Virus record (IMG/VR): IMGVR_UViG_2541047802_000010
Direction: 5' to 3' (one strand)
Length of the DNA: 43,115 nucleotides
DNA from: a virus
Taxonomy: Duplodnaviria; Heunggongvirae; Uroviricota; Caudoviricetes
Shown one piece after another: positions 753 through 1,762 of this stretch; position 1 is the first letter of the stretch, and every line of letters starts with the position of its first letter. The notes beneath the pieces were generated by a model, which saw only the letters and a program-made list of their open reading frames with translations, had not been told where the DNA came from and did no database searches. The translations under genes and the position numbers were made by a program.

Positions 753-1762
753 TTACTCTACTGTGGACACTGTGTGGACACTCTCGGCCTCAGTACCACC
801 TCTTAGCGGATTAAGAGAAATGGCGTCCTGAAGGTACTCTGGCGCAAAATGAGCGTAAACCATAGTTTGCTCAATCCGCGTGTGACCTAGTATCCGTTGT
901 AGCGTGATAATACTTCCTCCATTAATCATGAAATGAGTGGCAAAGCTGTGCCTTAGTGCATGTGTGGCTTGCCCCATTGGCAAATCCGGTTTTATTGCTT
1001 TCATTGTTCGTCTGAAGCGAGGGTAATCAGCATCAGGGAATAAAAAACCTCGTTTGTTATCCGCGATCATTTTGGCAACAGCCTCTGAGATCGGGACGGT
1101 GCGTGGTTTGTTTTCGTTTTAACAAACGTGACGCGGTTATGGATGATATTTTCTGCTTTCAAACGAGCTGCTTCTCCCCAACGTGCTCCAGTACTCAGGC
1201 AAAGAATCGCAATCTTTTTGTTGTCGCCGTCAAGAGCAGCAAGCAGTAAGGCAATTTCTTCCTGCGTGAGATAGCCTGTGTCTGGTTTTTCCTCCTTAAG
1301 CCTTTTTGTCCCTCTGATAGGGTGCTCACCAAAGAATAACTCCGCTTCAATCAGGGCTGTAAACATGCCGCTAATACATGTTAAATCACGATTGATACTC
1401 GAAGGTTTAATACCCTGACTTCTTCGGGTGGCGCAGTACTGGCTGATAAGCGATTTCGTAATTTGAAATGCGCATGGGTTATTCGTTATTTTTGTGAAGA
1501 TTTCAATTTTTCCAAGATTAGATTTCCCATGCTCTTCGTGTTTACCCTTTAAATCCCACCAGATCTGTGTCAGCTCCGACAGACGTCGCTTGTCTGTTGG
1601 TTTTGATAGCCATTCTTTATTGTGGTGGTTGTACAACGTGTATTTCTCGAAAGCGACAGCTTCGCTTTTCTTATCAAACTTCCTACGGATGCGTTTTCCA
1701 TTACGTCCAGTAGGGCGGATGTCCACTTCATATCGACCATCATCGAGTTTTTTGATTGCCAT
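753..1762 (-). pseudogene. int: P2-type tyrosine integrase, reading frame interrupted
   Basis: Two overlapping ORFs (1067-1762, 231 aa, N-terminal part with TGARWGE box; 753-1070, 105 aa, C-terminal part with HALRHSF and LGHTRIEQTMVYAH catalytic motifs) in different frames; together about 336 aa like P2 Int. Frame break falls in an A-rich tract near 1067-1110. Could be a true frameshift or a sequencing error. Confidence 0.6.

Follow-up and report, generated by a model that had tools for sequence, protein, structure and literature searches.

An integrase gene disrupted by loss of one AAAC unit in the P2-type prophage of S88-like Escherichia coli

The window analysed here, a 43,115-base stretch of DNA, matches Escherichia coli S88 (NC_011742.1, positions 2163105-2206219, reverse complement) with one mismatch, and S88 belongs to the O45:K1:H7 clone, ST95 (PMC6106082). 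It contains yegR (1-318), a P2-type (Peduovirus) prophage (646-37072), the CyaR small RNA (sRNA) gene, trhP/yegQ and a small island; the attachment (att) site of the prophage lies beside cyaR, between yegR and trhP. Compared with phage P2 (NC_001895.1) by BLAST, the prophage forms collinear blocks of 92-98% identity that extend between the two copies of the attP core, at 646 and 37072, with identity dropping to 85% across the distal tail-fibre block (26919-27741), and the gaps between blocks are the known variable slots of P2 plus one 2.6-kb insertion. The subject of this analysis is the integrase gene of this prophage, int, which lies next to the left att site and is split between two reading frames. 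The features of the gene, in window coordinates, are:

753-1762, minus strand: int pseudogene of the P2-type prophage (tblastn with P2 Int, RefSeq label, Pfam)
1067-1762, minus strand: N-terminal open reading frame (ORF) of int, 231 amino acids, made of Int residues 1-219 and 12 out-of-frame residues
753-1070, minus strand: C-terminal ORF of int, 105 amino acids, Int residues 233-337 in a different frame
1106-1114, minus strand: remaining (AAAC)2 tract, one unit gone from an ancestral (AAAC)3 (alignment with P2 int)
1067-1070, minus strand: ATGA overlap, with a premature TGA at 1067-1069 and an ATG at 1068-1070 that is Int Met233 and the start of the C-terminal ORF (ORF list and sequence)

As a tblastn query, P2 Int aligns in two parts that lie in different frames, residues 1-219 (1762-1106) and residues 219-337 (1112-756). 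A preliminary description of this DNA had placed the two halves of the integrase in different frames, with the junction at an A-rich tract. The frames do differ and the tract is where it was said to be (AAAACGAAAACAAACC, window 1120-1105, minus strand, with a 4-base gap inside it), although the gene is divided into about two thirds and one third rather than halves. Across 161 bases compared with P2 int (window 1020-1180), this gap is the sole difference, GAAAACAAACAAACC in P2 versus GAAAACAAACC here. Alignment to an intact P2 integrase gene, a check that the same description had proposed, thus located the indel as a change from (AAAC)3 to (AAAC)2 at 1106-1114; the deletion can be placed no more finely than within the AAAC repeat, and no homopolymer there exceeds A4. 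With the four bases put back, the gene encodes 337 residues, of which just two are changed relative to P2 Int (D95N and E161D), and comparison with the intact copy in strain RM10466 gives one mismatch and the 4-base gap over the int region (1151 bases, 1155 columns). Slipped-strand mispairing during replication is the most likely route to the loss of one unit. RefSeq labels the gene 'phage integrase, frameshifted' and the copy in strain N53 is likewise annotated as frameshifted; the frameshift is thus already flagged by public annotation.

The frame breaks at codon 220 and a stop follows 12 codons later. In alignments, P2 TKTNKPRTVPIS corresponds to TKSKKNRTVPIS of the HP1 integrase (1AIH) and GKGGKDRVVPIS of XerA (4A8E), so that Lys220 aligns with a lysine conserved in HP1 Int (NTKSKKNRTVPIS) and XerA (GKGGKDRVVPIS) and is therefore the residue that tyrosine recombinases conserve in the beta2-beta3 hairpin. 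Arg194 lies upstream of the break and is still encoded, whereas His269, Arg272, His295 and Tyr304 fall in the other frame (computed positions). The 231-residue product therefore retains the arm-binding and core-binding parts and Arg194, and lacks Lys220, His269, Arg272, His295 and the nucleophile Tyr304. Pfam recognizes the N-terminal domain PF24624 (Int_N) on this fragment (E = 5e-25), and the catalytic domain PF00589 is split, its first third (profile positions 2-65) lying on the N-terminal fragment and its last quarter (127-169) on the C-terminal one. No single polypeptide carries the R-K-H-R-H-Y set; with PF00589 split and the catalytic residues in two frames, the locus is therefore a pseudogene of the tyrosine recombinase family, P2-type integrase. 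P2 excision needs IHF in addition to phage proteins. It also needs Int together with Cox, the latter being required according to the P2 record (NC_001895.1), and a truncated Int would allow neither excision nor reintegration despite intact att cores and protein-binding sites. Judged from the missing catalytic residues, recombinase activity would be lost, and neither excision nor reintegration of the prophage is, very probably, possible any longer.

The prophage carries a second lesion, in the major capsid gene N, as follows:

12785-16444, plus strand: major capsid gene N, interrupted by an insertion sequence (IS) after codon 138, giving fragments 12785-13198 and 15779-16441 plus stop codon
13200-15780, minus strand: ISEc12 (IS21 family, istA and istB), 2581 bp, with a 5-bp target duplication CCAGT, antisense to N and the late O operon

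The IS in N noted in the preliminary description is thus an ISEc12 copy flanked by its target duplication. The insertion would block head formation. The O operon, in the order given by the P2 record, is O N M L X Y K lysA lysB R S, and because N stands early in it, expression of the genes downstream would be reduced; ISEc12 is probably polar on M, L, X, the lysis cassette and the tail-completion genes R and S. With inactivating lesions in both an excision gene (int) and a virion gene (N), the prophage is defective, and the earlier term 'grounded prophage' describes it fairly. ISEc12 also occurs in P2-like prophages of other strains, independently and at other positions (locus L008, at ~9794-12374; H150 and H163), and in OkiPb01678 it lies between the portal gene Q and the terminase gene P; this recurrence may point to a preference for certain targets, or to prophages tolerating insertions. 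The single mismatch to the S88 RefSeq sequence also lies within ISEc12 (window 14150, G here and T in S88); the DNA may stem from a sister isolate or from a different version of that record.

Both lesions have the same narrow distribution. A 69-base query across the deletion site was compared with 5426 complete E. coli genomes, and alleles were separated by identity band. Of 760 matching records, four were identical to the window (S88, MS7163, N53 and N62, N53 being a cerebrospinal-fluid isolate) and 756 fell in the 90-95% band, where every one among the matches listed had 94.5% identity, as expected of a 4-base gap. A long int query matched 765 records against 760 for the short one, and the at most about five unrecovered records leave room for very rare other alleles. 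The N::ISEc12 junction is confined to the same four genomes. Over the 33.8 kb in which these carriers were compared with the window, three of the four had the full score across 12.5 kb and all four did so across 21.3 kb, N62 scoring marginally lower on the 12.5-kb left part. The four carriers are essentially identical, and the int allele is inherited within one clonal group. The int frameshift and N::ISEc12 would each have arisen once, in a recent common ancestor, and been inherited clonally since; as the carriers are near-identical, the lesions are recent and neutral decay has not had time to act. We therefore hold, with high confidence, that int is a true, clonally inherited pseudogene in an S88-like P2-type prophage that has two recent lesions and is otherwise still intact. 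The remainder would be intact because little time has elapsed, and selection would not be needed to explain it. On the evidence of the two lesions, the prophage appears to be immobilized, unable to form heads and at the earliest stage of decay, a case of ordinary prophage decay.

The remainder of the prophage is P2 in content and order. Forty P2 proteins are encoded in P2 order at 84-100% identity, the exception being the mosaic distal tail fibre H (52%), and other cargo stands in place of P2 orf30, fun(Z), orf91, tin and old. In tblastn searches with 42 P2 proteins, all P2 genes present were full length and gap-free except int, N and the mosaic H; 38 P2 genes other than int and N were found in the window, all full length without gaps, and no sequence-detectable defect was found in the prophage beyond the int frameshift and N::ISEc12. 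The tail fibre gene H (24390-27125, plus strand) has 2736 bases versus 2010 in P2 and resembles P2 H just in its first 207 residues and its C-terminal part (52% identity distally). The sites and genes of integration and lysogeny control are:

646-673, plus strand: attL core, a 28-bp perfect direct repeat with attR, followed by intact Cox sites and the P' arm to 791
37045-37072, plus strand: attR core, a 28-bp perfect repeat with attL, overlapping the CyaR 3' end
37049-37134, minus strand: CyaR/RyeE sRNA gene, 3' terminus within the P2 att core (Rfam RF00112, 100.7 bits)
1878-2177, minus strand: immunity repressor C, intact, 99 amino acids, 99% identity to P2 C
2171-2274, no strand assigned: Pe, O1 (2181-2188), O2 (2203-2210) and Pc, all annotated hexamers and octamers as in P2
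2292-2567, plus strand: cox, excisionase and Pc repressor, 100% identity to P2 Cox

The 28-bp repeat at 646-673 and 37045-37072 includes the 27-bp P2 attP core, and the attL core, Cox sites and P' arm (646-791) equal P2 24355-24500 at 146 of 146 positions. On integration the phage core rebuilds the end of cyaR, leaving a second copy of that end at attL (646-673). Positions 37033-37044, immediately to the left of the attR core and within the P-arm region that holds the IHF site, show several differences from P2; the P arm itself is identical.

The cargo occupies three slots and amounts to ~5.4 kb of the 36.4-kb prophage (~15%):

6720-8552, plus strand: DUF7380 protein, 610 amino acids, in the old/tin slot between A and Q; PADLOC candidate PDC-S39, E = 8e-85
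20739-21818, minus strand: RelA/SpoT-domain protein, 359 amino acids, replacing P2 orf30 between S and V; weak PADLOC match to PDC-S33, E = 1e-16
28078-30011, Z/fun slot module: DUF5677 protein (280 amino acids), a 194-residue tyrosine recombinase and a 125-residue hypothetical protein on the opposite strand

The cargo ORFs are intact, as are C, O1, O2, Pe, Pc and cox, in agreement with the earlier statement that repressor, operator and cargo looked undamaged. The 194-residue recombinase is a catalytic domain alone (PF00589), for which a sequence search of the PDB returned no relative, and PADLOC matched none of the three Z/fun-slot proteins. For the RelA/SpoT-domain protein, the matches in a PDB sequence search were all small alarmone synthetases (RelQ/RelP/YjbM type, E ~1e-15); the name CapRel was considered and, given those matches, is not applied. 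The C-terminal ~150 residues of this protein have no match. The RelA/SpoT-domain gene and the DUF5677/recombinase/hypothetical module are also found in the prophage of canine strain 317, in which int and N are intact, and the DUF7380 gene also occurs in prophages with intact int. These genes are ordinary cargo for P2-like phages. This fits the hotspot model of PMC9122126, in which such phages are known carriers of defence hotspots.

Three other explanations of the broken gene bear on this conclusion. Some platforms miscall A-rich, low-complexity sequence and the comparison here was between assemblies, so the frameshift might be a sequencing or assembly artefact in a gene that is intact in the cell; we give this almost no credence. 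A whole 4-base unit is missing, at a site with no homopolymer longer than A4, and the identical allele stands in four separately assembled complete genomes. S88 was a Sanger project. The raw reads of MS7163 are PacBio (PMC6106082). The exact 231-residue product is present on 137 contigs in a collection of 15 billion proteins, from NCBI, ENA, JGI and Logan assemblies (named strains being KTE5, KTE7 and UMEA 3162-1); a gene index holds it in 236 blocks, and the gene neighbourhood was the same in 24 of 24 contigs read. An assembly error at a homopolymer, which the preliminary description had named as fatal to its account, is thus ruled out, short of reads, by cross-assembly agreement and the type of lesion. 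It is also very improbable that the AAAC repeat controls integrase production, either as a reversible slip-strand switch or through recoding. A change of repeat unit could in principle revert exactly by regain of one unit. However, three units are present in 756 of 760 records and two in one clonal group only, no four-unit allele was seen in the identity bands of those 760 records, and three units are generally too few for high-frequency phase variation; with two alleles, the minor one within a single clonal group, the locus does not behave as a phase-variable contingency locus. For recoding, the A-AAA-TGA context at 1067-1073 could permit rare -1 slippage, but the canonical X XXY YYZ heptamer is not present at the deletion site and 756 of 760 homologous copies are in frame, unlike a programmed ribosomal frameshift. 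The product of slippage at the downstream stop would still lack Lys220 and its hairpin, and both -1 slippage and re-initiation at the overlapping ATG were rejected as rescues, as either product lacks residues 220-232, the catalytic lysine included.

The remaining explanation concerns not whether int is broken but why. The preliminary description had taken the pattern to fit selection acting on the cargo and not on the phage. In this view the lesions would have become fixed because a locked prophage keeps its three loci of candidate anti-phage cargo and no longer imposes the cost of induction. In its favour, no cargo ORF is damaged and two match PADLOC candidates, both lesions fall in mobility or virion functions while the repressor and operators are intact, the clone is successful (>130 assemblies with the allele), and P2-like phages carry defence hotspots (PMC9122126). 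Against this, decay is equal in cargo and phage, the 38 other P2 genes being as intact as the cargo, and the carriers are almost invariant over 33.8 kb, so that undamaged cargo is what neutrality predicts and selection has hardly any variation from which it could be measured. Two random lesions would both miss the ~15% cargo fraction ~72% of the time (arithmetic from BLAST-block coordinates). Two of the three cargo modules sit in the apparently intact prophage of strain 317 and the DUF7380 gene in prophages with intact int, and the defence role of the cargo genes is that of candidates only. Selection for the cargo is accordingly not borne out, and we consider it unlikely. A stronger form, in which the int frameshift and the polar IS were positively selected in O45:K1:H7 as a double lock, leaving a fixed island of three candidate anti-phage loci (PDC-S39/DUF7380, RelA/SpoT-domain, and DUF5677 with the mini tyrosine recombinase) free of lysis risk, is more doubtful still; if true, the double lock would contribute to the success of a neonatal-meningitis clone. 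We note that the P2 hotspot paper does not discuss defective integrases (PMC9122126) and that the word 'prophage' appears nowhere in the S88/MS7163 paper (PMC6106082).

Three points weigh against the conclusion of a recent, inactivating and clonally inherited lesion. No near-identical relative (>99.9%) with an intact int was found; the closest intact-int copies have 98.2% identity among complete genomes, and 99.0% in draft assembly L016 and strain 317. The 105-residue C-terminal piece is translatable in principle via the overlapping ATGA, and residues 220-232, with Lys220, would be in neither piece even if both were translated. The loss of excision itself is a deduction from absent catalytic residues.

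Comparison with known systems places the locus among decaying P2-like prophages. P2 integrase (NP_046786.1; structures 5C6K and 5DOR; P2/HP1 tyrosine recombinases) is 99-100% identical in amino acids over both fragments, the position of the gene next to attP/attL and C matches, and the P' arm and Cox sites are identical; unlike P2 int, which is in one frame, the gene here has a 4-base deletion at codon 220 and its full catalytic set in no single ORF. Intact P2-like prophages at the same yegR-cyaR site (for example RM10466, strain 317 and AF40) match in insertion site, gene order and kinds of cargo slot at 98-99.6% DNA identity, and differ in having a 337-residue int, an uninterrupted N and other cargo combinations, strain 317 carrying SIR2 plus an ATPase in the old/tin slot. 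The cryptic P2 remnant of K-12 at this locus (ogrK and a D' fragment next to cyaR) is an end-state of such decay in place. That remnant has lost nearly the whole phage, whereas the prophage here is complete save for two lesions and represents the earliest stage of the same process. Other, independent int lesions occur in the integrase cluster, namely an IS5 insertion in strain 2017.11.01CC, a 205-residue C-terminal-only product (83 contigs) and a 305-residue truncated product (6 contigs). These are different mutations in different lineages, none at the AAAC tract, and because of them int loss is seen to be a recurrent, ordinary fate of P2-like prophages.

For practical purposes, the int allele cleanly identifies members of the S88/MS7163 clonal lineage and is in this comparable to the 1-base deletion in bcsA that the two strains share (PMC6106082). 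Attempts to mobilize or cure the prophage, or to employ it as a helper for P4, must reckon with the absence of Int and capsid protein. The finding has little significance beyond bookkeeping and raises no new question on integrases or prophage biology. Outside the prophage, a ~170-bp segment between yegR and attL (window 324-492) is missing from several otherwise collinear loci (L010, L011, L017-L019, L007 and L008). Past trhP, the island at 39066-43115 (minus strand) encodes PcfJ-domain, DUF1266 and DUF4034 genes, and the DUF4034 gene carries a frameshift of its own in strain 317.
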